A DNA stretch of 48,816 nucleotides, filler included, from Sphacelaria rigidula (taxonomy: Eukaryota): the NCBI GenBank assembly GCA_964200075.2. It is 2 parts of 2 records of this genome, joined end to end, with 100 filler letters (N's around TTAATTAATTAA, not from the genome) between each part and the next. Parts side by side here need not be neighbours in the genome. Positions count along the whole stretch, not along the records: positions 24,466 to 48,816 come from CAXNAA020000208.1; 1 more part is not named here. The stretch is one strand, 5' to 3'. The notes under the pieces were generated by a model. The model was not told where the DNA came from. It saw nothing but the letters and a program-made list of their open reading frames with translations, and did not search any database. The position numbers and the translations under genes were made by a program. Positions 5,665 through 48,816 of this stretch are shown piece after piece. Every line of letters starts with the position of its first letter. Position 1 is the stretch's first letter.

Positions 5665-5710
<46 letters not shown>

Positions 5711-17009: not shown

Positions 17010-20000
17010 GATGCGTGTGAAGCAGGGGTGCTCTGGGGCATCACGTCGTGTCAATGGCTCAACAAGTGCCAACTCATGTGCAGAGAGTCTTTGCTCGTTT
17101 GGAGCATAAAAAGAGCACAACCACCCCGCCGCAATTGGTTGCTGCGATATAAAAGCATGCTGAGCATGCGGCAGGCACTTGCCACTGTCGGGGCCGGGTC
17201 GGCCATTACGCGCGCGATTGCCCAATGTCTTCCTGTGGAAAGTCTGAGCAGTCTCATGCCGCGCGCCATAAGCATCGTCAGCATAAGGGCAAAATGCGAG
17301 GTAATCGGGGTGGCGGCGGCGGATCCTTCGGCGGTGGAGGGTCGCAGTCGAGTTCTAAGCAGCAGCAGGGGCAGCGGCGTCAGCATGTGTCTGGTTCTGT
17401 GTCCGGCGCCGCTGTAGGTGCTGCTGCTCCGCAACGGGCGGTGCAGCTGGGACCGACTTTTACAATGTCGAACACTGCGCCGGCGCCGGTGGTGGCGCCG
17501 GTGGCGACACCAGCAGCAGCGCCAGGCTCGACGCCTGCTGACGCGCTGGTCGGAGGTTCGCCAAATTCTCGGTCTGCTGGCTGGGGGTCATACCCACCGG
17601 CGGTGCCATTTGAACCTGCCGCGGTGTCTTCGCCTGCGCAGCTTGCGCAGCCGTGGCGTCAAGTAGGATTAGCGGCGCATCGGTCGGCACATAAAGTGCC
17701 AGTGGAGTTCGCGCACAGGTACGTTCCTGCGGAGCTGTGTCTTCCAAATCAATGGGAGCGTGGAGCCATTGCGGTTCGGGCTACGTGGGATTCTGGCGCC
17801 CACTTGACGGGTCATGTGAGTCTATCGGTACAGATTGTAGAGGTGTTGGAGTGCCTTCTCCCGGGTGTGCTGCTGCGCAAAGCGTTCGCTTGGGGTGTGG
17901 TAGGCGGTCACCGCGTCGGGTCAGCATGTTTTCGTCACAGAGCGTACTGTTCCGCTGCAGGTGACTTTCACGACTTCCTGGGGGGCGGCGTCGTTGCCTC
18001 CGATCTCGTTTGCGATCATGCCGGGGTAGGCTGACGTCATTCTTCTGGGGTTGCTGATGCTTCAGGATCTTGGAGTCGACGCTCGGCGGTTGTGAGACTC
18101 CATGAAGACGCGGATGTCTCCGCCTGACCCACGCTTGGAGACGCCCGCCTTTTGGGCGATCGTCGCGCGAGCTTGTCGGTGGATGCTTTTCAGGAGGCTG
18201 GGGGGCAGGTGACCGAGGACCGGGATGCGGTTGTGGAACGCTCGGTAGAGCGCGGCCCGCAGATGTTCATGGACCCGGCGAAAGAGGAGTCCGCTCGGAA
18301 GGTCGCGCTGGAGGCGAGCATGACGGATGCTGTGGCGAAAGACCTCAGCGTCCCAAAAGCGGAACGCCTGCGCCGCATATTGCATCGCCGCGTCAACGCG
18401 TTTCCTTGTGCGCTGCGGGGTGACCCCCTGCGCGCGTGGAGCCCATACGTGTTCAGCTGAAACCTGGGGCATCCGCGGTGAAGGCGAAGCCGCGGCGGTA
18501 CGATCCGGTGAAGCCGAGTTGGTTGGCGTCATGCTTGGCGGCTCTTTTGGCGCTTGGGTTGGTAGTCCGGAACCTGCAGGCGGTATGGTCCAGTCCGGCG
18601 ATGGTGGTTTCCAAGAAAGACTCGTTCCGCCTGGTAAGCGACTACAAGGCTGTAAATGATCAGGTTGAGAAATCGCCGGGTGTGATGCCCAACCAAGATT
18701 CGGACATGCGTGATCTCTCAAGTGCTTGTTTGTTTGGCAAGTTGGACCTCCTCCAAGATCACTGGCAGATGCTGTTGGCAGAGAAGGCGCAGGAGATTTT
18801 CACAATCACGAGCCCGCTAGGCTTGTTTCCCCCGAAGCGAGTGCCGCGAGGCGTGTTGAATGCCACGGCATATTTATCAAAGCATCATGACTGAACTGCT
18901 TGTCGGCTTGAAATGCAAGATATGGGTGGATGATGTGTTTTTTTTTCGCGGACACGAAATACGAACTTTAAGAAACGCTTGATGCTATCTTGGCTCGCTT
19001 AGAGAATGTTGGTTTGTTTGCGGCGGCGCACAAATGCACTTTCTTCGCCAGTGAACTCGTATGGTGTGGGAAAGTGTACTCACACGGACTCGTACCTCAT
19101 TACCCTGTCAGATTGCAAGGCTCGTCTGACATGCAGCGCCCGGAGATGGCCGTAAAACTCATGCAATTCTTGTAGGCCGTGAATTGGCTGCGTACCTCGT
19201 TGCCGCGTATGGCAGAAACAGTCGCTCCCTTCGGGTTTTTCCTCGGAGAACTCATGGCGGGTGCTGCGAGGCGGACGAAGCGTGTTACAAAAAATTGCGC
19301 TATTCCGACTGCATCGTGGACGGAGGGCAGGTTGCAGGCGTGGGCGGCAGCGAAGGATCTGGTAGCTCACGCCGTGACGTTATTCCATCCTCGTCCTGAT
19401 CGTCAGGTGCTTATATTTCCGGATGCATCTGAGTGTCATTGGGGTAGTTTCGGTATGCAGGTGCGTAAGCTGAAATGCAAAGACGCCTGCGGGTTGAGGA
19501 TATGACGCATGAACCGCTGGCTTTCCTCAGTGGTAATTTCAAGGGTTCGCAGTTGCGTTGGGCCACAATTGATAAGGAAGGTTTTGCTATCGTAAGCACT
19601 TTTCGTCATTTGGAGCATCTTCTGTGGGATGGCGTGCACATTTTCACGGATCACCGAAATCTCGTGTATATTTGCAACCCGGAAGCGGCGTTACGTCTGT
19701 GTCGAAAGCATTGGCACAACGTTTGGAGGGCTGGAAAGCTGTTCTTGGCCAGTACCGTTACTCGATTTGCCACATTTCAGGTGACAGTAATGCGTGGGGT
19801 GACTTACTTGCGCGTTGGGTGAATATTCCGGCTTTGCCTGTGCGGGCTGTGGCTGTGTATGGTCCGTGTGAACCTGATGACTCGATGCCGTCCAAATCTG
19901 TTGTCCGCCAAGCGCAACGAAAAGACCTTGGGGCCGAAGATGCGGACGTGCAATCTTTCGAGTCGGACGTTAGTACTGCTATCTTGGACAATGCAGGTCT

Positions 20001-21776
20001 GTTTCGTGTGCATGTGCTTTGCCGACACGTTTTATGGGTTACGAGTTCTGACAAGCAGTTGCAGGTACGTCTGATGATTTGCGCGCACATGCGCGACGCC
20101 GCGCATCGTGGTGTGGCTGCGACGCTCGTGCGCGTGCAAGAGTTTTGCGCCTGACAGGGGATAGGAACTCATGTGCGCGAATTTGTCCGCCAGTGTCTTC
20201 ACCGTGCTGACTCGAGGGCGGGCGATGTTGTTCCCCGCCCGCTCGGGGAAACGGTCCATGGGACCACGCCGAATGAAGTCGTTCATTTCGACTTTTTGTA
20301 TCTGGGCGAGAGTCGCCCGCTAGCTTCCCAAGGTTTGTCGGAGGATGTAGGGTTTCGATACATTTAGATGATCATCATGGATGATTTGCGCAACTTCGTG
20401 ACTCTAGAACCAGAGGGAGTGTGTACTGCTGAATCGACTGGTGCATCTTTGCTGAATTGATACACAAAGTTGGGGGTGCCGCGTGTGTGGTCGAGTGATA
20501 CCGCCACGCATTTCAAGAATGCGATCTTGGCTTGATTGCGCAAGGCCTTGCGCGTTGATCACCAGTTTGTGGTGGTGTATTCTCCGTGGTCTGACGGCAC
20601 GTGCGAACGCATGGTCAAGGAAGTAGTCCGTGCTCTTCGCTCTATTCTTCTCGAGCAGCGTAGAGCGGTTTCCGAGTGGGTGGACGCGTTCCCTGAGGTG
20701 CAACGGACGTTCAATACAGCGTATCGTCGTCGTTACAATAGTACGCCATACCACGTGATGTTTGGTCGTGCCCCTCGGACGTCTTTCTCGGTGCTGGCGT
20801 CTTCGTCGTCGGCGGAATGAAAATGTGATGTTTTGGACGATGTTCAAATTTAGCGTGCACTGCAAGGAGTCTTGGGCTTGCAAGAACGTTTCCACGTTTA
20901 AGTTCAGGAACGTGTTGCCGGTGAACGTGCGCGTAGACATGAGGGGTCCTCTTCGGGGCTGAAACTGTCGAATTTTGAGGTAGGCGACTATGTCTTGTAT
21001 GCACGCGTGCGTCGTCTGGGTTTTACGCCCAAGTTGATGGCGACGTGGATTGGTCTGTGGACAGTGGTTGGTGCTCAGCACCCGCACGTGTTTGAGATTC
21101 AGAGCATTGTTTCGGGTCGTGTTCACATCGCCCATGTAGCTCGTTTGCGGTTTTTGCATACTCGCAGCTTAATGTCGCGGCTGACGTTAAGGACGTGTTT
21201 CAGCATGCTTTCAATCAGGGGCAATTTCAGATGGCTAGTATTGCCCGAGTGGCAGAAGCAGACGATCGTTCGTTGATCGTGTTGGTCGACTGGGTTGGTT
21301 TCAAAGTTAAGGAGCGTACGTGGGAGCCCTACAAGGGTACTTTTGAGGACGCTCCGGAATTTCTTACGAAGGAGTTGCGTAAATTGCACGTGACTCGTGC
21401 CGTTGCTGTTCGCATTACGAGTGAGTTTGGTATTCAGTTGTGACTTACTCATCGTTCTGGCTTGTTCTATGTGTCGAGCGTGTCGATCGATTTTCGTCCA
21501 ACGCGCTTTGGGGGTGCTGTGACGAAATTACGCCATTACGTTGAGTTGGTAGGTATGATCCGGATAATGACTAGGGGCACGGGGATTATGGAGGGTTCTG
21601 GATGATGACCGGGGACACGGAGATGGTACCTGCAGGTCTAGAAAAGCTGGTCCCTTGGAAGGTCAATCCATCATAATGATATGTTTTGAAGGCCGACAAC
21701 TTAAACTGAGGCCAGTAAGACCGGGGAGTCCCTCAACAGCAGTGATCCACCAGTCCCTCTTCTGGTTGGCGTCACA
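17010..21776 (+). mobile_element. Degenerate Ty3/Gypsy LTR retrotransposon with chromodomain, 5'-truncated
   Basis: Domain order: gag zinc knuckle CHCRGRVGHYARDC (17180-17221), protease ATWDSGA, RT (WSSPAMVV..FRLVSDY, WVDD 18923-18934), RNase H (DASECHWG, WATIDKEGFAIV, FTDHRNL), integrase (HMRDAAHRG..CLH, VHFDFLY, SPWSDGTCERM), chromodomain-like VDWVGF..RTWEP (21195-21443), PPT, 3' LTR. Multiple stops and frameshifts. Confidence 0.93.
21518..21776 (+). repeat. 3' LTR of the Gypsy element
   Basis: Starts TGTGACG directly after the G-rich PPT (TTTGGGGGTGC) and ends CGTCACA, giving 7-bp inverted termini. Confidence 0.7.
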
Positions 21777-24365: not shown

Positions 24366-24465
24366 NNNNNNNNNNNNNNNNNNNNNNNNNNNNNNNNNNN
24401 NNNNNNNNNTTAATTAATTAANNNNNNNNNNNNNNNNNNNNNNNNNNNNNNNNNNNNNNNNNNNN
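24366..24465. other. Artificial assembly gap linker (44 N + TTAATTAATTAA + 44 N)
   Basis: Exactly 100 bp, with a six-frame stop palindrome at 24410-24421. Confidence 0.95.
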
Positions 24466-25680: not shown

Positions 25681-27717
25681 GAGGGGGGAGGGGGCAGGGG
25701 TGGACGCACCCACCCTGACACCCAGCCTCACCCTGACACCCAGCCTCTTGTCCCCTGTAGTTTTTTGCCGAGGCGTTGTTGGCGAATGCGGTCAGCTGCC
25801 GTGTACAGAGATCCTTGGCATGCACACCGCTGAGATGACGGACATACCACCCCTCCAAGCTCGTCACCTACTATGATAACATTTATGAGATCGTGTTCCG
25901 TGTCATGTGTCTCGACTACCCACCACTAATAGTCATCCGGGCAAATTTCGCGAGGCGTGAGATAATGTTGCTGCTTTGGCTACAGACTGTTGTCGCTACC
26001 ATGCGCTCGTGTATTGTACATAAATATGTGTAAGCGTTGCCGTCATCCGAGGTCATCGGGACAGGGCGGGCAAGGAGCAGAAGCAAATATACGAACCTCG
26101 CAAAGCCCGCCAGACTTCTCGGTTTTTGTCGGTGATTGTTGATCATTTATTTTCAACAATTTCAACAAAAAATTCAAAAAAGCACAAAAAAATCACAAAA
26201 TAATGGCACAAGTCGAAAAAATTCTCTCCGGGAGGGGGGGCTCCGTGTCCGAAACGTTTATCTCAACAGAACCATAAACACCGAAATATTCTGGAAGATA
26301 AAATGCAAGTGCACTAGAGCTCTACCCGGTCGTGATGTGTGACCTCACTCATCCTGAACGAAAAAACTATTTCCAATTTGTTAGTATCGAGTTAACAGTG
26401 AATCTGAGTAGTTACAACAGCAGTTTTCTGTCTGGGAATATCCAAAGGTCGAAATTGTTCGATTTAACGGCATTGTATTAAATGCGGGTGGATTTGTTGT
26501 GTGGATGGACACAACGGCACAACACGGCGGGAGAGTGTACTAGCATTGTCATTCCGAACGATTTTCGATACTTTTTAAGGTTCTTCAGGTTCATCGTCAA
26601 AAAAAGATCCACCCTCACTTTTTTCAAATGCCGGGTTTCTGGCGTGAAGACGAAAAATAACGTGAAATAATGTGATGGTCAAGCAACACCGAGGGTCCTC
26701 CCCAATGTGGGGCGACCAAATACCTACAGGTGGATCATCTGGTCCCATTCCTATCCGACATCCTGACACCGGTTGAAGTACCAACTCTTCCGCAAAAGGC
26801 GTCTCGTTCACGACGCGTACTGGCGCATGGTTGCGCGTTTGCCGCTCGACGCTCCCGCCTGGTTCAGGTTCGGCTGTTGTAGTTGCTCTTCGAGCAGGCC
26901 TTTGACCGTCGAATCCATGAACGATTGATTGTTGGCTCGAAGGTCTGAGAACAATGAATAACTAAGGGTGCTGGAACGGAACAACGCCAGTATGACGCGG
27001 CAATGAATGCCTCCTGTCTCCAAGTCTGGGCGGCTATGTTTGTACGGGCCCTTGACCGAGTCCGATTTGATTTTTGTTTTTGTTGGTGCCTTCTTGAACA
27101 CGTTTTGGGTTCTAACGAAACATATTCTTGACAGTCGGCGCATGACCTACGCGGCCGAACAGCCGCTGAAAAACAGTCGATCCGAAAATGGCCGTATTTC
27201 ACCCCCTGTCCGGGACGAAGAAAAAAAAGTTGAAAAAAACGTTAAAACTCTTCTTTTTCAGAGGCTAGCTACGCCTTGTCCAACACCACTTTCCTCACGT
27301 CATAACTTGTGTGTAACACGAGAACGGCAAAAATCAGCAGAATCTGGCTAAATCGGGAATCGACGCGGCAAAAGTTGCGTCAATTTTGGCCAAATATTGT
27401 GCTCACAGCAAACTCTACTGAAGTATTGTTGGAGTTTTGCTCGTTCTATGAGCATCTCCATAATTTCGTCTCTTCACCGATCCTAGCTATGGCATCGTGA
27501 GCGCCTCCGTTCGGAAGATACGACCTGCACCCATCAACCACCCAGACGTGCGGGACAGAGGAAGTACGGATACAACTGCATACATCGACGAACAAATATG
27601 GTGGTCGCGCACATCATGAGGTTTTCACCGAGTGGAGGGGAATGATCCGAAAGCAGTAATCGCTGAGAAGCACTATATATTGTGCATAAGGGCAGTGCCC
27701 ACTCTCCTACATTCACA

Positions 27718-30350
27718 TCACTGGACAGTTGCATCTTTGTCCACCTCGGGATTAAAGTCTTCCTCTCGTATTGGAACAACAACCGTCCGTACGTCATCGC
27801 CTTCCCACCAAGGCAGCGACGCTGCACCCGCTACCACCTCCACCGCCCCCTGTCCCCCTACACTGTCACTCTCGTCATATACGTCACTTTTCTTCATATC
27901 TCGGTTCACAGGTTCCTGACTGCCAGCTGCAATCGTATTCCCCACGTCGGTTGCCAGTTCTCGCGCTTCAGTCGCAGCAACATTACCGCCGTTTTTCCCC
28001 CCAGAGTGTGCAAAAGTTCGTTGATCGCCTCCTCTATTCTGCATTATTCGAGTTGAATCTTCCCCTGCTGACTCATCGTCCGAAATAGGTATGCCCCCGA
28101 GGTTCAATGTGTTCAATGTGCTCCGCGGTGTCTCACGCTGTGCATACCCTTGAACCGCTCGTGTTGCTGCGGTATAGGAAACATCGCTGAGTGCGTTGTT
28201 CGAATCGCGATGTGCACAATTTAGCTGTGCTCTTGCCCATGCGATTGCCATGTCTGCGACGTGTTTCTGCAAATCATCGTGAGGAAACAAGGCCGCTTGA
28301 TACTGAGGACCCCAGTCATTTCCCTGCCTGCACGATGGAACCAAGAGAACGAAATGGTAGCATTTAGTATCCAGATACTGTCGAAGCGCTACTCATGTTT
28401 AGTTAAGATGGCAGCGCAACGACGAAATCACCGTAACAAAGCATGAGTACGCAATCGATCTTCTTTGAGGGTTTGTTCCATCATAGTCCTAGCGATAAAG
28501 TTCATCGCCCAAATAAGCGACGGTATATTCCAAGCATAATCGCACATCACCGACAATATTCGCCAGTTTCATGAAGTGTGAATGAAGATGAGAAGCTGTC
28601 CGTTCGACAAGCCTTTCCATTTTACGTCGAACCATGATCACGTCCGCATGCAAGACTATTTTCTATGGAGACCAATCCAGAATCTGGCAGGGCCCCAATC
28701 TGTGCCACCTCGGGGGGATTCAGGTTCGCAAAACCCAGATCCGTGTGTACCCCATTATGGCTTCACAGATTTGTTGGAATAGTTCAGTACACGGAGGGTC
28801 ATTTTCTGCAGGGATGTTGTATCACGGTGAAGCCGAAGAACAGGCAAGCAGCGAAGCATCCCTCAAGAGCAGCGCCGTACCGTAGTACCCTAGTGAACAG
28901 TGCAGTGCAGTACACCCTACCACCACAGAACACGATAATGCATTGTGGCAATACATTATGGTACAGTCGGTTTTGCGAGAACAGTGCACAGTGTGCGAGA
29001 AGAGTTCACGAGTGCAGTGCCATTCATCACCGTCAACACTACTTATCCGCTTGTCGAACCCCGTGCGAAGCTGCTCCAGCAACCGGCGCTGGCAGGCACT
29101 ATTACGAGACTGTCTGCTGCTGCGATTGCAAAAATATCAAACATCTGTTGTCCTGTCACCGTACTTCACTGTGCGCACGTCACTTCCTACAGATTCGGGA
29201 GACCTCGACTTTTCCATAATCTGCGCTCAGATTCGGGGAAACCCGTTCCCAAATCGTAACAGACGAGTCTGAGCTTCCCCGATTTGAGCCAAATTGGGGG
29301 CCATAATAGGCGTTTCCCGATTTGAGTTGCCTCGATCTGCGTACAGATCGAGTTTTGTGACTGCCGTAAAACATGGTCTAACTCTTTGATAACTCTTCGT
29401 GAATGGGACCCCAAATAAGCGTTTAGGGGGCAATATCACGCAGCAAAAGCACAAACCGCCCGAACAACGCACAACAAGTACATTCCGGGAACCAGCGTTG
29501 TGTCTCGCGAGATTTTGAGACACGGCGACATCTACCAAACCTGGGCATAGATCAAAACGTTCCACATGGCCATAACAACAACAGGGAGATATGATACTAG
29601 GTGGTAATCCAAGAGCGGTTGTACACGGCTTATCAGAGCCATGTTGCTGAATACTTGAGCTCTCACTGTACCGCATTCTCACCTGTCGCCGGTAGTGGGG
29701 TCGTGCATGTCGAAAAACCGCCGCGTCAGGGACTCGTACGAAACGACAACAGGATCAAAACCCACCCTCACTGCTTCTATGCGTCCTGCAAGGCCAGCGC
29801 AACAAGGAATGGAAATCGATTTAAATGGACTTCGGCGTGGATTTCAGTGTTGCGATTCGGAAACCTGGACACGCGTTTCGTGTGGATGTAGTGGGAACAC
29901 GGGGGATATGGTATCTCTCCACATAACTTCGATCACCCATGCGTTGATATTGCCTCAGCCGGATGCATGAAGGTAAGGGCAGGCGAAGAATGGTATCAAA
30001 GCTATAGCTCGTCATCATTGTCAATTGGACGGTTCGTACAATGGACAAGCGCAAGGGAATGTAACATTTGCCTTCAAAAGTTGTCAAGGGCGACTTTTCA
30101 ACAACCTCGGAGCACTACGTTCGTGACTAAGTGGGAGCCTCAAAGTCAGTAACACATTCTCGGGACAAACAGAACTCGGTTTGCGATGACCAACAAGCGC
30201 TTTCCCTGGGACGCATGGAACATTGCTCGATAACCTTGGGCTCACCGACATAGCCACAGTAGGCCTCATGAACTCCTGCAGAGGATAGCATGTCGTCTCG
30301 CACGTGCCAGAAGCATCCGCCAGCAAAGGTTGCTGTTTCTAGCTCGATAG
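27718..30350 (-). CDS. msrA: MsrA (PMSR) domain exons 30350-30246, 29785-29683, 28327-27718
   Basis: [11 protein letters not shown] (catalytic GCFW), [25 protein letters not shown] and [15 protein letters not shown]; canonical AG/GT boundaries, in phase with the MsrB exons. Confidence 0.88.
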
Positions 30351-33300
30351 CTGCCACATGCGAAAGAAAAGGAATCGTGCTTTGAGCAAGCAAATGCTCT
30401 TATCCACCGTTGACTGAACGGTCGACGAGGGAAAGGGACTGCTGAACCTCTCTCGCGATAAAAAATAAAAGAAAGCACCGCAGAAGGAAGGTGAAGAATC
30501 AAAACAAATAAAAAAGAAAACGAATCGTGTGTTGATCTTCCTCCTGTATGATCCCGGCTGGTGCACCCACATATTCCGAAAGGTGTAGACTGGCGTCCAG
30601 AATAGATGGGATGACAACACACACACCGTTGAACTATACTTGGTCTGATCCACACTGAAAGAAACCGAGCGGATCCATTGTGAATGCCCGCGATACCTCG
30701 AAAAAGGGGGTTTGAAGTTGCATTCACGCGGTCGCACTGGAAGAATCGCTGCGCTTCACTCTACCTTGCAAGGCTTGACCAAAGGAACCCAGGTCCTCTA
30801 CAGAAACGGTCGGCCGATGAATAGGTCGACATTCCAATGGGAGTGAAACCCGTGGAGGAACGTACTTAAGCGCAGATCGGTTGATGCAAAATCTGCGTGC
30901 ACGGCAAGAGACCAGAGCAAACACATGGGCCGCACGCGAGGAGAACAGGGTAGATTCTCTCACTTGGGATCATTTCCGCCCGAGAAGTACGCAGATCAAC
31001 ATGGATAGCGAAGTGAGCGGGGTCAGTAGAATTCATGACGCTGGCAAAATGTGAAGTACCCCCTCACATTCGTGAGTAGTGATTTGTCATCACTGCTAAC
31101 GTGATATTATTGCATGAGTAAAGGGTGACGCCGAGGTACATGTGCCGGAAACTCACAGGTTTCTACATGACCTTGTCACTGCCGGGCACAGGAGAGGTCA
31201 GCCAGGCAAGAAGACGAAAGCAGATTCTGTGTAAGACAATCGGCATCTTACCCTTGGAAAGCTGCTGACGGTTACAACATGCTTGGCGTTCACAGGTGCG
31301 CACCCTGCTTCGTGGCTGTTATACCTCTGAACATTGGGACCTGGACCGTCGTTAAACACATGCCCCAGGTGAGCCCCGCTCCTTGCGCACAAAACCTCCG
31401 TACGCCTCAATGGCCCTTCCTCCTCCCGTAAGATCTGAAAATGACAAGGCGGCCAAGATCGGACGCAGCAACGTCTTCCAGATCACGGACGATATCCTCA
31501 CTTTCGGTAGTTTCGATCTTTAAAACGGAGTATTCAGTCAACGCATCTCCAGAAGTACTGGGGATCTTTCTGATGGCAACAAGATCCCATTTCCACAGTG
31601 GAAATCCGAAGATGCAAGCATTTCGGACGAAGTCACAAACATGTCCACTAGTGACCACGAACGAGTAAGGAGCATGAGACTGACTTCAGTCATTAACATG
31701 TGTCATGGGTTTCCGGGTATTGGCGGTCGAAACAAAGTAGACGCCGCATGGTCTTCTCAGAAGTGGGGAGTCTGGGTTGCATCAACTGACTAGGAATGTT
31801 ACGGTAAAAATACGGATGTGCGGGGGGGAAACGGACGAAAAGAGCCAAAATTCACCGAATAGTGAACGTTGCAGCCAATGGGTCTGTCGAGTTCTCGAAA
31901 ACTCGATTACTTTAAGGGGTTTCAGCGCCTACCGTGACTACGGTATAATATTTTTCAACAACTGCAGGAGGGCGGTGGCGTGCAGGCATCGCCGGTGCGC
32001 CATATGACACAATACGCGACGTGTTGAGCAGAAGAGATTCGCCACAACAGTGTGGGCGTCAGCGCTGTATTGTACTGTTTGGATGTGAATCAAATCCAAA
32101 ACTGATGTAGTTGTTATGCAAACGTGGACGGGTAGTGCAGTACAGGAGCAGGCATGGCTGGGGGGCGACGCGGTAGAGCCGAGCTATACTCTTGCGCAAT
32201 GAGGGGAACGACTCGATATACCGTGGTGATTTCTTTCTTGACTCAATCAAGAAGGCGCCAAGAAGCGCTGAAGCTCGAACTCTGTCTGCGTAGGTCATCT
32301 GGTAAGCTTCTGGGATCGGCGGCAAACCTATCGACTCTCTGAAAGTTCCTATCGTATTGGATCTTCAAAAAGGTACAAGTGTCCATGAGGCGACGGGTAT
32401 ATCTCTCTACTCCCACCGCCCCGCCGCCCGTAGCCTGTACAGAGGACAAGGATAGGACCTGAAGGTCTCTTTCGTTTGACCTCCCGCATACAGGGAATGG
32501 CATCCACCACTTTGGCGAGAGTGGTGTCTCAAGAGCTCTTGAGCGTCGAATACACACCTTATGTGAAATAATATTTTGCCGGAGATTTTGCCGGAGAGAT
32601 GGCATTTGCCAACTTATTTTTGAAACATGTGTCGACTTCAGGAGGGCAGTGAAACATGGAATAAAGACAGCCACACACAATGACATCACTGCAGAGCACC
32701 TCCTTGGGGGGCATGTAAGTCAAGCTTCTCCCAGCGAAGGCCCTCAAGATAATGTCGAGGAAAACTGCAGGACACACGATGGCGAACACTGGAGGACACA
32801 CGATTGCGCAATGTTTTTGTGGCAAGGCTGTACCTCATGCAGATATATCTCTTCTCAATGCACACCGCGTTGGCGCTACTCTTTATAAGTGACTATTCGA
32901 ACAAACGGAAGTCACCGGCTTCATAGGTACGGGTAGGTATGTAGTAATTGATCTGAAATTGGGCTGTTTTTCGTTGTTTTCGACCATCCTTGTACGGGTT
33001 ATATTCAGGATTTTTGGTGGATACACGTACGCTACCCAAGCCATATTTTCCGCAGAGAACTGAAACAAATGCATTCTTTGGGTATTTCGTTGTGTAGGCC
33101 TAGTCTGGGCTTCATTTCCCTTCATCAGCTTACTACAGCCCGGGACAGAAGCAGCAAGGCAGCTAGAAAAATGATATGCAGCCAGCATCGATAATATTTT
33201 CACAAGCACAGTCATGAAACAAGCGTACGATCTACCTTCGAAAGGAGGCGGCGCTTTAGCACACGGGGTTGCACATGCAAGAGGTATACATGTTTTTGTC

Positions 33301-36300
33301 AGCTGTTTTGATGTCCCGAGTGAAGAGTGCTCGATTATCTTCGCCACTGCATCTCTCAACAACTTTTTTTATCGCGGTACCGACTATATTTGTGAGACAA
33401 TATACGCCAACCCTGGCCAGCCGGTGGCCATCGCGTGGGTGATGTCTGTACGGCACCGATCACAACACGAGCCATCCTGGGAAACAGCACGACAGCCAAC
33501 AAGAGGGAGCCAACAGCGTTGATGCGGCACAAGTCCTTATTTCGAGGTTGTTCCGCCCGGGCAGCACGAAACAACATACAACGACAACAACACCATCGTG
33601 TCTCGTGCCCCTTATCCTAAGTCGTGCATGGATGCAGGAGCAAGCGAAGGGCAAATGAAGACTGTCATGTCAACCCCAGCCACCGCAACCATACCGCGGG
33701 CACGGCAACGCTGAAAGCGAAATAACCCGTGTAACCGCTTGTGCGGCCGCGGTTGTCCTGAGTATCATCTCACCACCGCACTGTACTGTACTGTACTGTA
33801 CCACGGCTGCGGGACCCAGAAGGTCGGGAAACCCATGTGTGACGGAGGACATACTAGAAGTCGATTTTGATCATATAATGTTTTACATAATATGGAGAGA
33901 CTGGAAAATAATAATGATAATAATGATGATGATGATGATGATAATAATAATAATTGATTATTTGAAGTTAGTGTTTTTGTTACACGAAATAACCCGTACC
34001 TATGAAACCACTGCCAAACGGATATTTTCCGGTTGAAAGCAGTGTTAAGTTTTTCGAGCCATGATGACTTTATCCCGATGAACGTTCAATACCTACACTC
34101 GGAGATTGGTGAAAAGATCAAAGTGCCCCAAAACTATCCGAAGGGAAAACCATTTCAAAAATAAGCTTTGAACCACTTTCTGACTAAGCGATCATCAAGC
34201 TCCATGACACACAGCCCCAGATCCTGGCTCCGTGCTACAATGGCGCGAACAACTTAATCACGATCATTCTGGTCAACAGCCATCAAGACATACTTCTTGT
34301 AACTTCTAGCTGCTGATTCCGCTGCCACCGAGAAACTGTAAAATACCAACAAATGGGTAATAACGCCTCCACGAAAACAGATCATCACCCCTTATTGCCC
34401 CGACAACACGGATTTGGAAGGATTTCCTGTGGTCGACCTGTTCTTTCATTAAATGTCTACCGATTTCAGCACGTTTGACTGGAAATGGCCAATACGCTGC
34501 TGAAATTCCCCGAATGAGAGGATTATTTGCTTGAACGTTCAGCTCTGTACACTGAGAGCTTTCAGCTCTGTATTTCAGGAGGTCTTATGGTGGCAGATAT
34601 GACACTGCTACAACCTGCTCGGGAATTGATTATTCTACCCAGGGCGTTGCAATGCTCAGATACAAAGTGTACTCTGCGTCGTATTTGTACGAAGTGGACC
34701 ACAATGTTCACTGCGCTTTGTGCGCGAGAGAGGCCGCTTTTGCCGCAAAATTCCCCGTCTGCTGCCTATTATCGCTTTTCCGCACGAACTGATCATCGCC
34801 GAGAACGGCTCTCAACTGCCGGAAATTCTGCATCTGAGAAGCATAGCAGCATCTGATTTTTGTCGAACATAAACGCGAAACACTCCATAATCAAGACCGC
34901 CACGTATCATAGCAGAGAAAGGGAGACAGACCCTGCATGCGCTTCTGGGTGTACTGTGGAGATTACCCTTAGCATGGGCATACACAAAGCACTTCAGTGA
35001 ACATGGAGTTAAATGAGAGAAATAATTTTCTTGCGGAACCTTTATCCCCGTGAACCTTCCGATCATTCCGGCGGGTATATTTTTAACAATTCGCACCCGC
35101 CTTGAGCACCTCCTGAAGCAACCCGCAACTCGAATGGTGACGGACGCTCGAGTAGAGCAGCACGCGTAGTACCCTAGAAGCGCGAAACAACGACGGAAGC
35201 GTGTGCCATGTTGGTGTCCGGCAGTTGCCTGATCATCGTTTCTGCGGCTAGACGGAAAACTGTTCTCACCACATGGTCAGGATGAACGGGCCGCCAGAAT
35301 CCAGGCCAACCACTGCGCGGGGCGCCTATCGGCAGCACTCCATGCTCGGGGAGAAAAAGCGGAAGGCCGCCTAATGCGCAAACATATACTCCACCGTCAT
35401 GTGAAGCAGGGCCTGCCGATGTCGCTACCTGTGCACCGCTTGTCCCATCATCTCCCATCATCTCTACTCCTAGTCCTTTAGACATATCGGGAGCATCTGT
35501 TCCACCTTCCAGCAGCACATGGACCTGGCGCAGTGCGACGCAGTCCGACCATCGAATGTATCGAGTGTGTGAGAAGATCTTTAAACAGACGTCACGATGG
35601 CTCAGGGTCGAGTAAACCGCACAAAGATGCTTCGATGCGGGGGGTCATGGGTATCAACGAGGTGCCACATCGTGCGCTCGAGGGCCGTGTGAAGGTACGA
35701 TGTACGCTCGCATGACACTTGACCACCCACCAGGGCATTCGAAATGGATCAACGCGCTAATTTGTTTGACCCAACGATGCACCAACAGCAACGAACTCGG
35801 TGGGAAGCAATGAACTTGCATATTTCGGAAAAATCGCATAACATGTCTACTGGTACGACGGAGGCGTTTTGAATTTTTCTTGCCTGGTTTGCTGTGAGCG
35901 AGAGAGCTGCCGTAGAAACCTCCTCGTCCGTCATGCGCTTCAACGAGTATCCCAGTGGGGACAGGGCCGGTACATCACTGCCGTCCTCGGAGTGCTGCTC
36001 TATTGAAATATATATTGCACAGCAAACAAGCGATACATATGCCACTGAGGCTTCCCGAAACAGCACACTCGACACGAGTTTTACTCATTTCAAATGTGTC
36101 CAGGAAGATAACACAGAACCGGAGTAGCCGTGAATCGAACCTCGACCGCAAGGTCCTGCGATAGCTGCGTACATCCAAGCTGTATTCCTAAATTGACACG
36201 ATTTGCCACAAGAAAACTGAGGATATGGTGTACTGGATCATGATCTCATAGACATGTGCTCAAATGGGGCATACTCATCCACACAGTACTGCCGGCTGAA

Positions 36301-38680
36301 GTCACACGTTACGTCGCCAACATGGTACGTTTGTAATTTTGCGGCACCAACCACTGCAGAGCGAGCAAGACACTTTAGAGATGGTCACTTTCTAGTTTTC
36401 CTTGCTCCTTCTCTTGTCATTTTTATATTTTTTTTCGAAGTCTACTGCTTGTTCTACCTTTTCCTGTATTTCCTTCACGTTTCTTCAGTGAGTGTTGCAG
36501 TTTTGTTTAGCCTCGGGTACGCTTATCATGTAACCACGACTGGATCCCTGGAAGATGAATCAAAGTGCGACAATAAATCAAACTACTTAAACTGAACTTT
36601 GCCATCCTCGGCTCCGGGCTTGCGTCAGCGCTTGTATCTGGGACAACTGCAAACTAATAATATTACAAAGTATGTGCTTCTGGGGTTGGGTCACAGGGTG
36701 GGAGCACAGGCGGGCGTCATGGAGAAAAATTCTGTATCATACACACTGAAAACGGCGGACCCTCTCATGCTATCCCGTACCTCTGGCCCTTTCCCATGGG
36801 GGTTTCTCAGTCAGTTGAAAGGAGTACTTCGGCTCGGACTCGTCCTCAGACAAGAAGTTCCAGCCGCGGGTGTCCAGCAACTGGCACACAGGAAGACTCC
36901 GGGAAGCGACAAGGAAATTAAGGAGGCGCGTTTACTAGCATTTCGTCAATAGTGTCTACACCAGGTCAAGGTCAGTAGTGCACGGAGCTCGAGTACACGC
37001 GCCTGGCAAGTCAGCGTCGTGTGTTTAAAAGGAGAAGCGAACCCGGTAGCACTTGTCGCTCTAGTGCAAACATGTAGTACAGGACGCGTCGGATCGGTAC
37101 GCCGTAGTTTGATTGATTTGATCGGACAAATGCCGAGATAGCCCCCCCCACAAAAAGTGCACCGGAGAACGTCCGACAAACCGGCTGCGATCCCACGATT
37201 GGGCTCGTTTGCAGCAATTTCGCCCACGTGAGAGGCGTGTAGCAGTCCGAAATCAGCTGTAACTCCCAAACGAGTCGCGTCGTGCAGCACGAAACCAGCT
37301 CTGACGGCATATATGATCATCGCCTCCTTGCACTTTTTTGGCCGATTCGGGTGGGGAGGCTACAGTATCTCGGCAGCAGTCATCGGTTGATTACACTTTG
37401 ACCGACACACTCAGGGATCCAGCCGTGGTCACATAATAGACTGACTTACCCGAGACAACAAGACTGAAACGCTCGCTGAGGAAGAAAGAAGAAACAGACA
37501 ACGTAGAAAATAACAATAAAGTGGGCTAAGGAAAAGAAGAAGAGGGAGAAAAATAGGAAAACAGAAATGGCCGGCCTCTGCCACGTAGCTACGGTGGAAA
37601 AGAACCAAGTTTCACCACCATAAGATCAGCTGACGTCCTCAGCCGTCACATCGCACCACAACGGGAGGTCCCGTAGGCTATTCGACAGTGCCAGTATCCC
37701 CTACATTAGCTACATTGCGATGGAGGTGAGCAGTGTGACAAAAATCAATCGAATTCGACGGGCCAATTTCACCAGTGGTGCCACTGGAGCAACGCGCAAA
37801 ACAAACAGTACAATAGCAACCGTGTCGCCTCTGGTGGAAAAGGGCAGAACAAAAATTGGGAGGATCGCACTTGGCTGAAATTGAAAGCTACAACACCTTG
37901 TACATACCTGTTCGTAGGAAGTTCCAGCGGAGGGATCTATCCAGCAAGGAGCGTCCTCCGACCCTAGCATCTTTTCGAGCCCGAGGGGAGAAGCAGGCGC
38001 GAAACAAGGGGACCGGGGGAAGCACGACCGAACAACAGAAGACGACCGGACGTGAGAAAGTGAAGTATCATAGTACCCCAGAGAGCTTTTGAGTTTATCG
38101 AACGTTGTCGCGGAATCAGCTTTACGGTAGACGAACACACTGCGATCGAAATATCCACTTTGCAACAGCTCCGCTTCAAAAAACGACGACTGTCCAGCGG
38201 AGGGTATTGGTTCAAAGCGTGTCTTATGGGTCAGGAACACCTTAAATTTGGCATGGAAAAACGAAAAGGAGGGCTATCGGGGCGTCCTCCGGTGAGGAAT
38301 GTTGATACGCATACGAACTATCAAATGTGGGATTCTATTTTCGTTTGCTCTAATGGGGTGTTTGGAACCTTTTTGAACATCCCAGAAGATCGCTGGTAGA
38401 CATACAGTCCCGCTGCGCCCGCCTCTTCACACGCCTCCACCAGACTTGAACCAACGTATCCCCCGGCATCGAACACAGTATCACCCTTGGATAATGTGTC
38501 TTGCAAACTTGCACCGTGCCTTTCCATGTCTATTTCTCGTATCATAAACCCTTGGCTAGACAAAATGCGGACGAGAGTTTCTCCTCTCCCAAGAGCGGTG
38601 GTGCCATCTCCAAGTATGAGTAGTGCCTTGCGCGGTACTGCTTGGGGAGTGTGGTTCTGCGAGTCACCGCCTTCCTGCAT
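27718..38680 (-). CDS. msrBA: Putative multidomain protein: NAD(P)-binding/atypical SDR-like region + MsrB + MsrA (peptide methionine sulfoxide reductase fusion), ~725 aa
   Basis: Exons (minus strand): 38680-38369, 38240-38077, 37963-37908, 37300-37182, 36880-36781, 35999-35884, 35524-35270, 31434-31325, 30892-30765, 30350-30246, 29785-29683, 28327-27718. Total 2178 nt, all phases consistent, no internal stop. Exons from 36880 downward are well supported; 38240-37182 and the start codon are the most parsimonious of several options. Confidence 0.7.
28660..29390 (+). mobile_element. Non-autonomous interspersed element in the last Msr intron
   Basis: Homologous, in inverted orientation, to 46255-47140 (e.g. 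TTATCCGCTTGTC.AACCCCGTGC, GAGACTGTCT.CTGCTGC..TTGCAAAAATATCAAAC). Confidence 0.7.
30765..35999 (-). CDS. msrB: MsrB (SelR) domain exons 35999-35884, 35524-35270, 31434-31325, 30892-30765
   Basis: [60 protein letters not shown] and [11 protein letters not shown] (catalytic RxCIN Cys present). Confidence 0.9.
32910..34014. mobile_element. Putative non-autonomous hAT-like TIR element in an MsrB intron
   Basis: Perfect 15-bp inverted repeat TTCATAGGTACGGGT (32920-32934) / ACCCGTACCTATGAA (33992-34006); 8-bp direct repeat CAAACGGA at 32902-32909 and 34015-34022. Confidence 0.5.
33908..33953 (+). repeat. Compound (ATA)n/(ATG)n microsatellite
   Basis: Direct reading. Confidence 0.9.
36370..36585 (+). 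mobile_element. Short interspersed repeat, copy D
   Basis: T-rich body, then TAACCACGACTGGATCCCTG..CAAAGTGCGACAATAAATCA. Confidence 0.58.
36781..38680 (-). CDS. N-terminal region of the Msr gene: degenerate Rossmann/NAD-dependent epimerase (atypical SDR)-like
   Basis: [28 protein letters not shown] (beta1-alphaA-like), DTVFDAGG...[28 protein letters not shown] and LLDTRGW...EPKYSF (resembling the SDR C-terminal LGWEPKYS). Similarity judged by eye only. Confidence 0.45.
37385..37590 (-). mobile_element. Short interspersed repeat, copy E
   Basis: CAGGGATCCAGCCGTGGTCAC, A-rich body, GAAATGGCCGGCCTCTGC (as in copy C). Confidence 0.6.
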
Positions 38681-40610
38681 CGTGTTCAGCCTGCAGTATA
38701 CGCGCATGGGACGACAAGACGTTTTTCAGCTCACATCTGAAGCGGTATACATATTAGAAAACATAGATGGTGACGGTCAGAGTGTGTACTGTGCTCTGAA
38801 AAGGTCGTGTTGTACTATTCAATTCTCGACAGAGTCGGCGATGTCTGCGGCGGCTCAAGGCCAGCGTTATTGGACGGTGAACTCACGCGGGAGAAGGGAG
38901 AGATATGCAGTAGGCATACTTCCGGTCATGTCACAGGCTTCCGTGGCTTAGGGGCATGAAAGACGGCCTGAGAAGCCTGCGCTGCGTTCAAGGTACAGTA
39001 TGATCTCATTCAAGCGTTTGGTGTAGACAACTGAAACGAACATCAAAACCTTGACGTCTGCGGTAACCACGCTGCCGAGTGTTGTCCAATCGGAAAGATA
39101 CATTCCAATTTTGGGATGTACTCCAGGAGTGAAGGGTTTCCTTGCCTCGGGAAACTCGACGTTGCAGCGGCACGACTGGGGTGTCTTCCGCCGCACACCC
39201 CTTTCACGGCGTGTAGTTGGTTGCCCAAGAGGTGCACAACGTGATACGGATTCCAACGGTTTCCCGAGTCAAATCAAAGTGCTTCGATCCTGACACGTAT
39301 ACGCGCCGCTCCTGAGCGCAAAAACCGCCCTACAGAGCTGACTCGGGTAGAACGAAATAGCAGTCGATCTCGACCTGGAGCTCCGCTATCCCCACCGTAA
39401 GCTGCACCCACGATACAATTTCTTCGAGCCATGGACCCAAGGGCTATGCTTCATGCAGTGCGAGATGCGGTGGCACAGTCAGACAGATGGGGGTCTGACA
39501 TACGATGGGGAGGTGCGTCGACTTCTTGACAGAAAAAAAAAGTGCGAGCTTCGAGGATTCGATCTCCGCCCACGCGGTCTTGTAGGCAACAATCCGAACT
39601 CGTGGTGGCACAACATTGGCACATATGTGACACTCAGATATCGACAATCGAGATGGAAGAACCTTCAAATCTCCGTGTACCATGTGCGCCATATCTTCAT
39701 AACCAGAACGGCATTGAATTGTCTGACTACAGTTATCATGCTAGTTGAGGGGATGTCATCGCGGTTATAGTCGAATCGACTGCTGGCACATACGCTCTCT
39801 TTGCCGTGCTAAACGTACTCTTACAGAAGAAGAGCTCGGAGATGAATCCCTTCAATCTCTCACGCCCGTTCACGTCAACGAACGGCCTCTAGTATACAAT
39901 TATACGTTCCGGATCAGCACCTGGCAGGCCGATACTTGACCCCATACATTCGGCAACATGCCCTGAGCAAAGCTGCGAATTTCACGTGACAGATTTTTCG
40001 GAGAGTGATTATAGTTTTTAATGGCTACACGGTGTTCTTTCTGTGTCCATGTACATCCACTCTTGGGAACGGCCGCACCCGACTTCCATTTCTGCCGAGC
40101 AGCTTCGGGCCGAGGGCAGACCACCATAAACAAAAATGTGTAGCATGAAGTTTCGTCTGGAAATTTGCTCAAAGCGCCCCAAACACACCTCAGCCGCTCC
40201 CACCGTCTGCGTCGAAACGCATTGATACAAGTTGGCGCACATTAGGTGCCGTCTGTAGCGAGCGGTTCTACGTCAAAGTCGCCGTTCTGACGGGTACCTT
40301 GTGGGTTTCGAAGCTTGTCGAAGCAGGCATTTCCACCCAGGCCAGGGACGGCGGAATAGTAAAAAATAAACAAACGGATCGTTCCCAACGATTTTCACGT
40401 GCACAGCAAGCTCCCACATGACCATCTTTGAACCAGACAGCAAGAAAAGAAAACATCCCGTTATCTTTTTTCCACCAGGCGCCGGCTTCATACATATGGG
40501 GCCTCATATACATTATAGAAATACTCAAAAGAAAAATCAAAGTCCAAATTGACAAATCATAGTCCGAATTGAAAACGAAACCGTGAGAGCGCGATGTTAA
40601 GATTGACATT

Positions 40611-41555
40611 AAACACGGGATTTTACAAATTGGGGATGGGTTTGTCATTGAGGACGAACCCTGGAAAGCTTCTTACGCATCGAAATATTTTCGAAAACAA
40701 GATGCGAATGCACTCTACGGCCGTGATGTGCGGCTTTGATCCCCCCTATTCAGAAAATACATCTTCAATTTGAATGATCTCGTGTTCTTAGTAGATTTAG
40801 ATGAATAAGTACTTCCTCTGTCCCATAAGAAAAGGTACCTAAATTCGTACGGGCCCTTAACGCTGTCCGATCGTTTTTTTTTTTAATGACCTCTACGGTG
40901 TTTTTTGGGTCAAGAAAGTGTGTTTAAAATTTGCAGCTCGTGCTTGAACCATGCCGCCGAACGGCTGCACAAAAAAGTAGACGGCCCAAAATGGCCGTTT
41001 TTCGCCCCTTTTCGAGGGGGAAAAAAGTGTCGATTTTTTATTTGATTTTTTTTTATCGCGTGGGTCTTCCTGGTAGCAAGCCCTAATGAAGGCGGGGGCG
41101 ATTGATTTTTTATTTTATCGACACTTTTTTTCCCCTCGGAAAGGGGCAAAAAGCGGCCATTTGGGAGCCGACTACTTTTTTTTCAGCCGTTCGATGGCAT
41201 GGTTCAAGCACGAGCTTCAAATTTTATACACATTTCCTTAGCCCAAAAATACCGTGGAGCTCATTGAAAAAAAAAAACAGACATCGTTAAGGACCCGTAC
41301 AAATTTAGGTACCTTTACTTATGGGACAGAGGAAGTAACAGTTTGCGTGCCGGAATCACCTGAAGACGACATTGTTCGGTACAAAACCCCCGTATTGCAC
41401 CAATTTCAGATGACGTTTTTCAGGATGAGTGAGACCACACACAACGGGCGGAGAGAGCAGGTGTATTTTTTTCCGAAAATATTTCGATGCGTATGAAGCT
41501 TCCCAAGGTTCATTCTCAATAAAGAATACATACCCAATTTGTAAAATCCCGTGTT
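40611..41555. mobile_element. Outer TIR element hosting a nested MITE
   Basis: ~85-bp inverted arms AACACGGGATTTTACAAATTGGG...CGCATCGAAATATTTTCG (40611-40696) and 41470-41555. Confidence 0.65.
40812..41335. mobile_element. Stowaway-like MITE (Tc1/mariner)
   Basis: TA|CTTCCTCTGTCCCATAA...TTATGGGACAGAGGAAG|TA, with ~220-bp imperfect inverted arms. Confidence 0.88.
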
Positions 41556-41859
41556 ATTGCTCATACGCGGCCCACATTGTATACCAGTGATCGAGAGTGA
41601 ATACACTATATCCCAGTAGTTCATTGTTTCACACTAAAACCGAGTAATTCACGTTAGTGGAAATCTCCAGAAAACTAAAGCTGTCAGTACGCTTCAAAGC
41701 ATTTTGGATATAATCCCTGCGAAAACATAGGGACCATCCCGGAACATCAGTGCGAATTCCGGCGCCAATGATCGACCACCACCATGATGGTGGTAAGCCC
41801 ACTGCAGGAGATGGGACAGGGGAAACATTTTCCACAAAAACACGTGCTTCATCGACCTG

Positions 41860-42950
41860 CAGAACCTCTACGACTGCGTAGACTGCACGCTGCTGTGAGA
41901 AGTGCTTGCCTGGTCAGGAGTCCCGCCGCGAACGATCACATCATCCATATGTTTCACCAACGGCATATGAACTCAGGTATAGCTGGATGATGTACTATCA
42001 GCGTGAATCCACGTCTGCGAGGGACTCAGAGAATTCGTCCTCGCCATTGTTCAACATCTTCGGCGCAGCCCTGCTCGACGTGATCGTGCAGCGGTTCGGG
42101 GTAGACTCAGCCATCGTCTCAGACTTGGTATTTCCGGATGATGCGCCAAACGGTGACGAAAAAACTCTGGAATAGACGCCGCTGAAGCAGGTGCGGTGCG
42201 CGATTTGGGCAATGTTATGTGCGGATGAAGCAGGCATAGTCTCGATGTCCACAACTGGGCTTCCTAGAATGATGGCCGTGGTAGTAATGGCCTATCAGGA
42301 TACCGAATTGACGGTATCGGAGAGTGAGACAGAGTCCATGCGCCTGTGGTCAGTACGCAGCTCTGGCGAGACCGCCCTGCTCATCAGCGCGGCGGGCCAA
42401 CAATACAAGCAGGCGGCCAAATTTGTCTACGTTGGTGATGCTGACAGTACGGATGCAACTATATCCATCGAAATCGACTGCCACATCAGTGCTGCGTGGG
42501 TACGCCTTCGAAAGTACACCTCCTACCTCTACGATCGACCTAATGCCCAGCTATCTCTGAAACTCCGGCTGCTTACAGCGGAGGTGGTGGCAACTATGTT
42601 GTACCGATGTGCCACGTGGACGGTGCGCTCGGAAGACTTCGAGATTTTGCACGCTGCACACCAGAAGCGTTTTCTGCGAGTGGTTAGATGCCGTAGGAAG
42701 GAGCAAAATGGTTGTCAGACTCGTACCGAAATATGCTCGAGATGACCAAATGCGAAAACGCATCGTGCTCAGACGGTTAGCCGCACAAGGGCCCACGGAG
42801 ACTGGTCGCCCGCGAAACACCGGGAGGACCACCCTCAGGAAAGCCTACATGCGCTAGAGCCTCTCCCACGCGAAAAAGCACGGCTTTTAGAAGATGTTTC
42901 CGGGCCAGTCCCGCCATTTTCAGGGTGTGAATCACCGTCCATTTCTCTTC
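41860..42950 (+). mobile_element. Decayed LINE (RTE-like) reverse transcriptase fragment
   Basis: SPLFNIF, WAMLCADEAGIVS (degenerate YADD), FVYVG, LKLRLL.AEVV.TMLY.CATW; internal stops. Confidence 0.82.
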
Positions 42951-47753: not shown

Positions 47754-48816
47754 CTTGAAACAGACGGCAAAAATGAGCACTTTACATGACCATCATTGAA
47801 CCAGACAGAAAAACTGAATCTAAAAATCTGAAATGATCATCGTCACCGGTGAGGGACACGGACACGTGACGGACACGTGAAAATGGCACGCGTACAATAA
47901 CGTTGGTCATATGAAAGTCTTATCTTCCTCATATTGCTGAAAAGGCTCCGCACAATAAGTACCACACATGAGGCCTCCATCTACTTCAACCCGTTCAACA
48001 CAAGTCAGTGACGAATTACTGTGTACAACAACAGTCAGTACCGTCGTAGCATGCACAGCGATACACAGTATGCAAAGCAACATACTAGGGAGAATAGACT
48101 AGCGCTCGTGAAGTTGAATGCGCAATCGCGCATTTACACCGCCTGAAAGCACGAAAGTTATGTGTCGGCTGACCTTTCTACTGCACTAGCCCGCATTGCT
48201 CCGTGGTGGTGCACGGTAGTAGTTGAAGTGGAGTGCCGCCGCCGCGGCAGTGGTCTCATGGAGAGGGAAGGGCAGCTCTCCACGCGGTGGAGCCTTGTAC
48301 CAAGAGTCCTGAACCCACATAGGACGCCGGGTGCAACGAATGAAACTAAGCATGGTGCGGATACTACATTCATCGTACTGCACATGGTGCCAACACCGCG
48401 TTTAAATGGCGTATGGGACAGTCACTCATCATTTTGGAGGACATATGCCACCAGGATCGCGTACGCCATATCTGCACAGATGAAGTTGTTCAGACCCGTA
48501 GCCATGCCCCATAATGATCATGATCATGATGGTGATGTGTGTATGTGTGTGCAGTCGCGACACGATACTTTACGTGGCGCATACTGATCGCACGTAGTAG
48601 TAGGTCAGAACTGGCCGATTGCCATGCCGATCCAAGGGGACGCATCGTCATAAGGGGAAGTAGACCAACCCCACGCCCCAACTTCCTCGCCACCCTCCCC
48701 CCCCCGTCCGGAATTGCTCACGAAAATATTATCATGCACTTTTGCATCAAAATGGCATTGCACCCCAACCCACCATGCCCAACAGTGGAGAGCGACTATG
48801 TCGTGTGTACACAAAA

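Follow-up and report, generated by a model that had tools for sequence, protein, structure and literature searches.

Fusions of the methionine sulfoxide reductases (Msrs) MsrA and MsrB are described as bacterial in the portions of the literature consulted. They include the B-then-A enzymes of NCBIfam PRK05550 and Neisseria PilB, in which a thioredoxin-like domain precedes MsrA and MsrB. Here we analyze a gene of the brown alga Sphacelaria rigidula whose 707-amino-acid (aa) product carries, in order, a predicted plastid-type presequence, a ~140-aa domain that we call the N-domain, MsrB, and MsrA. The gene lies on contig CAXNAA020000208.1 (C208) of assembly GCA_964200075.2 (244 Mb, 27,214 contigs), within the window, a 48,816-nucleotide stretch joined from parts of two contigs; positions count along the whole stretch. 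Its closest known system is the bacterial fusion PRK05550, and not a fusion with a short-chain dehydrogenase/reductase (SDR).

Members of the algal family share the domain order of PRK05550 and have it as their best NCBIfam match, but they score under its 330-bit cut-off (146 for the partial P0002, 177 for P0141, and 192 for P0033) and, unlike PRK05550, add a presequence and the N-domain and have altered active-site loops. Two B-A fusions without the N-domain (P0005 and P0008) share with the algal family an S-x-[LS]GY[DS]L leader and the zinc-free GxY...GGLPLF type. PilB likewise has three domains, one of them an additional N-terminal domain ahead of the Msr pair, but its Msr order is the opposite. 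The only Cys residues of the N-domain, 158 and 187, are not conserved, and the domain gives no thioredoxin profile match; since it has no CxxC or conserved Cys, it cannot be a disulfide relay as in PilB. Plant plastid 1-Cys MSRB1 resembles the algal MsrB in lacking a resolving Cys in a plastid (here a predicted location) and poses the same recycling problem, as far as the excerpted text of PMC6162775 goes; MSRB1 is, however, single-domain, whereas the algal MsrB is fused and has no zinc CxxC. Database entries name family members simply MsrA or MsrB. We found no account of an N-domain-MsrB-MsrA protein in the literature, including the available portions of PMC7539508, PMC5139114, PMC6627142, and bioRxiv 2020.01.24.918219, although subscription papers or supplements could hold one. 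To this extent, the view of an earlier note on this DNA that the architecture is unlike described Msr proteins stands. The protein is an MsrB/A enzyme of known type that carries an undescribed mobile domain.

Translation of the joined exon chain gave a minus-strand gene of 11 exons with one terminal stop (Table 1). Pfam matches of the minus-strand exon frames fall in order, with SelR at 35177-35644 and 31201-31482 and PMSR at 30130-30399, 29682-29843, and 27721-28392, which bears out the single spliced frame from the N-terminal region through MsrB to MsrA that the earlier note had read. RNA-type contigs from four of eight listed runs (X1, X2, X3, and X8; two studies) were placed on 26500-42500; their RNA nature is a guess, and the joints seen are GT-AG and GC-AG. 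We viewed 15 of 57 joints. Eight of the ten introns appear as joints in all four runs (38368-37971, 36780-36000, 35883-35525, 35269-31435, 31324-30893, 30764-30351, 30245-29786, and 29682-28328), including the GC-AG intron 35883-35525 between exons 5 and 6, and 3' UTR contigs extend to 27158-27262. The NCBI model P0001 (425 aa), which bears the species label Sphacelaria rigidula, aligns with the window at 100% and is identical to the 707-aa model over 393 residues. Its mapping places the gene start at 48385, 9.5 kb upstream of the start given in the earlier note. The two remaining joints, 37908->36880 and 48174->38690, are inferred from contig break points, extra upstream letters, and P0001; the second lies outside the stretch covered by contigs. 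Contigs of X1, X3, and X8 end exactly one k-mer overlap from donor 37908 and acceptor 36880, the junction found in P0001, and ~250 further letters upstream of 38692 in three viewed contigs fit its first exon, 48385-48174.

The exon chain 38240-37182, which the earlier note had marked as uncertain, has to be redrawn. Segment 37971-38240 is intronic, and the exons that follow 38369 are 37970-37908 and 36880-36781. All four runs skip the segment, with leftover depths of 14%, 0%, 5%, and 5% of joint depth. Inserting it splits the match to a family profile built without brown algae (46.6 bits whole vs 6.5 + 31.3), and against the N-domain profile the segment alone has a score of -1.3 bits, which 72 of 287 reported shuffles equal or exceed. 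The N-terminal region thus does stand upstream of MsrB in one chain, but at ~140 aa rather than the ~250 aa first proposed. It is extremely improbable, in our view, that the fusion arose as an artefact of gene modelling and that the upstream exons belong to another transcript or to one that is not productive. Such an artefact would fit the absence of a viewed contig linking exons 3 and 4, the contigs that cross intron 3, and the end of the NCBI model before MsrA. Against it, the junction of exons 3 and 4 divides a conserved N-domain motif, all four runs join exon 4 to MsrB exons (with one contig extending from 37158 to 31325), and dozens of homologues hold all three domains in one chain.

Residues 72-395 of P0001, used as query, retrieved 14 proteins, including a partial Ascophyllum orthologue and three with a common N-terminal region. 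A profile of the N-domain only (four sequences) found 31 longer proteins, four of them seeds or their cluster representatives; SelR is present in all 31 and PMSR also in 28. Against 1.84 billion representatives, the same profile gave 62 matches, comprising 30 with SelR, two with PhyH, 27 short pieces without any family at the Pfam cut-off (10 of which run on into MsrB-leader-like motifs), and three repeat-rich false positives, which were set aside. Among 160 fetched proteins, a redundant set, the N-domain is found in 126, the MsrB His motif in 86, and GCFW in 71, and the order N-domain, MsrB, MsrA holds in 71/71 proteins with GCFW. Named members are from Sphacelaria, Seminavis robusta, and Diacronema lutheri, with Ascophyllum as a partial B-A protein; labels such as "diatom-type" and "haptophyte-type" are assigned by likeness. 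As judged from these sequences, the N-domain defines a family spanning brown algae, diatoms, and haptophytes. It matches no Pfam family, no tested profile library covers it, and a genome search located it in Sphacelaria at this locus only. The earlier note had considered that the architecture might turn out widespread and annotated; it does occur widely among algae, but annotation covers the two Msr halves and not the N-domain. One member, P0084 (Diacronema lutheri, 944 aa), is joined to Peptidase_C13 and is probably two merged gene models, with P0031 and P0085 holding the halves separately.

The predicted N-domain structure is a small doubly wound alpha/beta fold with five strands within aa 91-181. 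Its fold matches are of the flavodoxin-like, periplasmic-binding-protein type I, and resolvase types at 8-18% identity; their scores lie near the common-fold background, and no function can be transferred from these domains. In 76 sequences, the best-conserved positions are Y167, G174, P186, E198, G205, W206, F208, L209, and E215, each at 86-97%; conservation falls on structural, aromatic, or acidic positions, none of which looks catalytic, and includes no Cys or His. Met175, in the N-domain hairpin, is kept in 83% of these members and, speculatively, could serve the fused reductases as an internal sensor of oxidation. The central helix-strand-helix of the core spans 48-63 aa between landmarks in 7/70 members and at most 45 aa in the other 63. 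A D-x-D-A-A-N...Y-x-P-x-W tail is found in most diatom-type members and is short or divergent in brown algae and in haptophyte-type and PhyH-fused members, a distribution that reflects a few lineage-level events and is no proof of co-evolution. The N-domain is also fused to a PhyH-type oxygenase in the P0130 and P0136 clusters (the latter with 53 members), which reach 46-47 bits against a profile from which they had been left out. These proteins are pelagophyte-type with signal-like N-termini, and the named one is from Pelagophyceae sp. CCMP2097. Oxygenases of the 2-oxoglutarate/Fe type are not known to use NAD(P). Given the non-catalytic-looking conserved positions, the variable core length, and the reuse in PhyH oxygenases, the N-domain is probably a binding or targeting module, a non-catalytic adaptor and not a dehydrogenase that binds NAD(P).

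SDRs bind NAD(P)(H) and are characterized by a GxxxGxG or GxxGxxG motif, YxxxK, and a ~250-aa Rossmann domain with six or seven parallel strands, although atypical SDRs may lack YxxxK. The Rossmann-like look on which the earlier note had built its SDR assignment is real in part, in that the N-domain has a beta-alpha-beta start, a glycine loop (G98-x-G100-x-x-A103), and the doubly wound fold. The SDR identity itself is not supported, in view of the missing YxxxK, the five strands only, the lack of an SDR profile match, and a glycine loop that is not family-conserved, and part of the look arose because 90 intronic codons had been included. Likewise, the domain set expected by the earlier note was recovered for SelR and PMSR and not for an NAD(P)-binding or SDR profile. 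Compared with atypical or extended SDRs (NmrA, NAD_binding_10, and RmlD), the N-domain differs in its ~100-aa five-strand core as well as in the features just named. The Sphacelaria N-domain has neither YxxxK nor, by inspection of this protein only, GxxxGxG in its loop; there is no conserved Tyr/Lys pair, and chance YxxxK occurs in 23/76 slices. A truncated Rossmann-type domain that senses dinucleotides and adjusts the two Msr halves to the NADP(H) state of the plastid would account for the glycine loop, the acidic end of strand 2, and the sub-threshold Sacchrp_dh_NADP matches to the N-domain. We consider it quite unlikely, as a GxGxx[GAS] loop is found in only five of 71 members (the Sphacelaria protein included, and four of the five brown-algal-type) and GxGxxG or GxxGxxG in 0/68 N-domain heads.

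MsrB domains usually, but not universally, have a resolving Cys (CGW) and two zinc CxxC pairs. The SelR match of P0001 has an E value of 1.4e-16, and the top Foldseek matches are MsrB (E 1.7e-9). The catalytic set (RxCxN with His100, His103, Thr26, and Asn119) is kept as R393-F-C395-I-N397, H378, H381, and T280, together with Trp344 and Asp385, while the resolving position is Ser and zinc CxxC pairs are absent, which makes this a 1-Cys, zinc-free subtype. Across 52 family MsrB rows, the catalytic Cys is present in 51, both His in all 52, and the resolving Cys in none; Glu27 is replaced by Asp in 39. Without a resolving Cys or zinc sites, MsrB is likely dependent on outside thioredoxin or glutaredoxin. 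The "self-contained" module of the earlier note does not agree with this count or with the absence of CxxC from the N-domain. Roles of Msr residues were taken from the accessible parts of PMC2713860, PMC6210582, PMC8417374, and bioRxiv 2021.02.26.433065, the last of which also gives, in its available portion, the yeast equivalents of His186 and Tyr189.

The MsrA half is remodelled. It keeps C448 (GCFW), W450, E474 (=Glu94), D499 (=Asp129), and Y514 (=Tyr134). The segment with Tyr82 is deleted in Sphacelaria and Ascophyllum, and the exon 9-10 joint is direct in all four runs. There is no counterpart of His186 or Tyr189 (E. coli numbering) and no EEYHQ-like motif in Sphacelaria MsrA. Secure repair of both epimers, as the earlier note had envisaged, is hard to reconcile with a brown-algal MsrA that lacks Tyr82, His186, and Tyr189. 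In 45 GCFW rows, Tyr82 is found in 41, the exceptions being the two brown algae and two incomplete rows; position 186 is His in 35 and Gln in five haptophyte-type rows, GCFWH occurs in 36, and Tyr189 is kept in nine. Between Sphacelaria and Ascophyllum, 75/98 residues of MsrA (77%) are identical, as are 52/64 in MsrB, 16/34 in the linker, and 23/171 in the tail. This identity in MsrA indicates that the altered half is not decaying. The two algae have in common an extra Cys467 and another Cys near 542, which we would guess to be recycling cysteines. Diatom-type members reverse the brown-algal pattern, with a near-canonical MsrA and an altered MsrB.

One altered half per lineage would also fit a largely non-catalytic Met-sulfoxide reader or scaffold that binds oxidised clients or relays oxidation via its cysteines. 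The family-wide GCFWH, Glu27->Asp, and Tyr189 changes point the same way, and elsewhere in the Sphacelaria genome MsrA and MsrB are also encoded by genes of their own, whose motifs are more canonical. Nevertheless, both catalytic Cys and both general acids (His103 and Glu94) are kept almost always and no residue of the canonical set is missing from brown-algal MsrB, so we regard such a role as unlikely; the separate canonical genes leave room for a specialised copy. That copy could instead be a plastid reductase of dimethyl sulfoxide (DMSO) to dimethyl sulfide, with remodelled sites suited to small sulfoxides. The named members come from algae whose plastids are of red origin, and the changes in pocket residues are conserved. 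Msrs are putative eukaryotic DMSO reductases, and DMSO production has been modelled in chloroplasts, according to the accessible part of PMC11801556. This evidence is circumstantial, however; ordinary MsrA genes in the genome could serve, and part of the sulfoxide-oxygen subsite is lost in brown-algal MsrA, leaving DMSO reduction a very unlikely main function.

By a simple hydrophobicity heuristic, exon 1 reads as a signal peptide, Phe, and a transit peptide. A signal-like stretch is present in 46/56 family N-termini compared with 67/330 internal control segments, and [ASGC]F follows it in 29 of the 56. The Phe motif of complex-plastid presequences is set out in the part of PMC5462543 available. 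The protein is likely plastid-targeted via a putative bipartite, ASAFAP-type presequence.

We favor, with rather better than even confidence, a plastid-imported N-domain-MsrB-MsrA enzyme in which MsrB reduces protein Met-R-SO via Cys395 and is reset externally, MsrA activity is lowered or altered, and the N-domain is an adaptor. Exon structure, domain order, residue inventory, and family are direct observations within this picture, and we infer the steps of the mechanism. The bipartite presequence would deliver the protein to the stroma. Cys395, assisted by His378, His381, Thr280, and Asn397, would attack the sulfoxide to give a sulfenic acid. With no resolving Cys, glutaredoxin/glutathione or thioredoxin would reset Cys395, as in plant 1-Cys MSRBs; plant Msrs with one catalytic Cys reset from outside are described in the excerpted PMC6162775. 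The remodelled MsrA, which keeps Cys448, Glu474, and Tyr514, would probably have lowered or altered activity, with possible recycling through Cys467 or Cys542. Finally, the conserved aromatic and acidic end of the N-domain may bring the enzyme to a client or place and may have been reused in this way in pelagophyte oxygenases.

Several observations weigh against this picture. No contig covering the whole transcript was found among those viewed. Alternative donor 31252 reaches 37%, 63%, 33%, and 27% of joint depth in the four runs, and contigs cross intron 36881-37907 at exon-like depths; the full-length product may therefore be a minority, although contig depth is a poor measure, so the isoforms are not ranked. 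The targeting call is based on the simple heuristic above. In the N-domain model, the conserved tail 191-240 has a pLDDT of 60-71, with a pTM of 0.43. Nucleotide binding is conceivable for brown-algal members, in which a GxGxx[AS] loop occurs together with an acidic residue following strand 2. The Tyr82 deletion is known from two brown algae only. The Arg of RxCxN is missing from most diatom-type MsrB domains (RxCxN is kept in 8/52 rows), so MsrB as the working half holds for the brown-algal lineage and not for the whole family.

Use of donor 31252 (region 31252-31324) shifts the frame to a stop at codon 426, upstream of the Cys395 codon. P0001 is this form and has neither the MsrB catalytic Cys nor any of MsrA. 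The donor is a candidate for regulated unproductive splicing. Intronic repeats at ~30410-30626, 37140-37330, and 28940-29070 reach contig depth bins of up to 21,000, 2,200, and 650, respectively; they are high-copy elements and apparently transcribed.

Table 1. Exons of the Sphacelaria gene and related intervals, in window coordinates
Feature	Position	Strand	Content	Support
Exon 1	48174..48385	-	aa 1-71; hydrophobic signal-peptide-like stretch, VLCG|F, R/S/T-rich transit-like peptide	P0001 at 100%; upstream contig letters; hydrophobicity heuristic
Exon 2	38369..38690	-	aa 71-178; N-domain alpha/beta core, strands 91-97, 119-125, 142-145, 165-170, hairpin 175-181	contigs; fold model
90-codon extension of the earlier note	37971..38240	-	open frame, intronic	skipped in 4/4 runs
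Exon 3	37908..37970	-	aa 179-199; conserved P-x-W and E of N-domain	joint 38369-37970 in 4/4 runs; break at 37908 in 3/4; P0001
Intron 3	36881..37907	-	high-copy repeat ~37140-37330; also crossed by contigs (retention or pre-mRNA; stop at 37712)	
Exon 4	36781..36880	-	aa 200-233; conserved GW-x-FL...E acidic/aromatic N-domain end	joint 36781-35999 in 4/4 runs; P0001
Exon 5	35884..35999	-	aa 233-271; linker plus MsrB leader (S-x-LGY); GC donor	contig joints
Exon 6	35270..35524	-	aa 272-356; first half of MsrB with Thr280 and Trp344; resolving Cys and CxxC absent	SelR match; contigs
Exon 7	31325..31434	-	aa 357-393; MsrB His378, His381, Asp385; alternative donor 31252 gives 425-aa form	SelR E 4.9e-9; both joints in 4/4 runs
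Exon 8	30765..30892	-	aa 393-436; MsrB catalytic R393-F-C395-I-N397, B-A linker	contig joints
Exon 9	30246..30350	-	aa 436-471; MsrA GCFW (Cys448), extra Cys467	PMSR match; contigs
Exon 10	29683..29785	-	aa 471-505; MsrA Glu474 (=Glu94), Asp499 (=Asp129); direct joint to exon 9	joint in 4/4 runs
Exon 11, coding part	27718..28327	-	aa 505-707; Tyr514 (=Tyr134), helix, Cys542, low-complexity tail without EEYHQ	Pfam; contigs

Elsewhere in the window, plus-strand exons of an M1-type aminopeptidase lie at 5158-6780 (ERAP1_C matches, best E 7e-10), and broken LTR-retroelement remains lie at 17153-20817 on the same strand (zinc knuckle, RT-RNase H, and weak integrase matches). An N gap with the TTAATTAATTAA spacer at 24366-24465 separates C207 from C208, and genes left of it are not necessarily genomic neighbors.

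These results describe a eukaryotic MsrB-MsrA family over brown algae, diatoms, and haptophytes that is likely plastid-targeted and carries an unnamed domain, and whose NCBI model in Sphacelaria is a shortened isoform. A tentative idea, possible but on balance doubtful, is that the N-domain serves plastids of red-lineage algae as a mobile adaptor, directing MsrB-MsrA or the pelagophyte oxygenase to one common client or site. On this idea, the Msr pair would be reciprocally specialised, with a canonical MsrB in the brown-algal and haptophyte lineages and a canonical MsrA in diatoms, and would serve a dedicated substrate, for example a single photosynthetic target protein or DMSO. Lineages in which half of a fused enzyme stays canonical offer a natural experiment. 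The family is a candidate for algal DMSO reduction and a target for knockout and enzymology work on how important marine primary producers repair photo-oxidised proteins.

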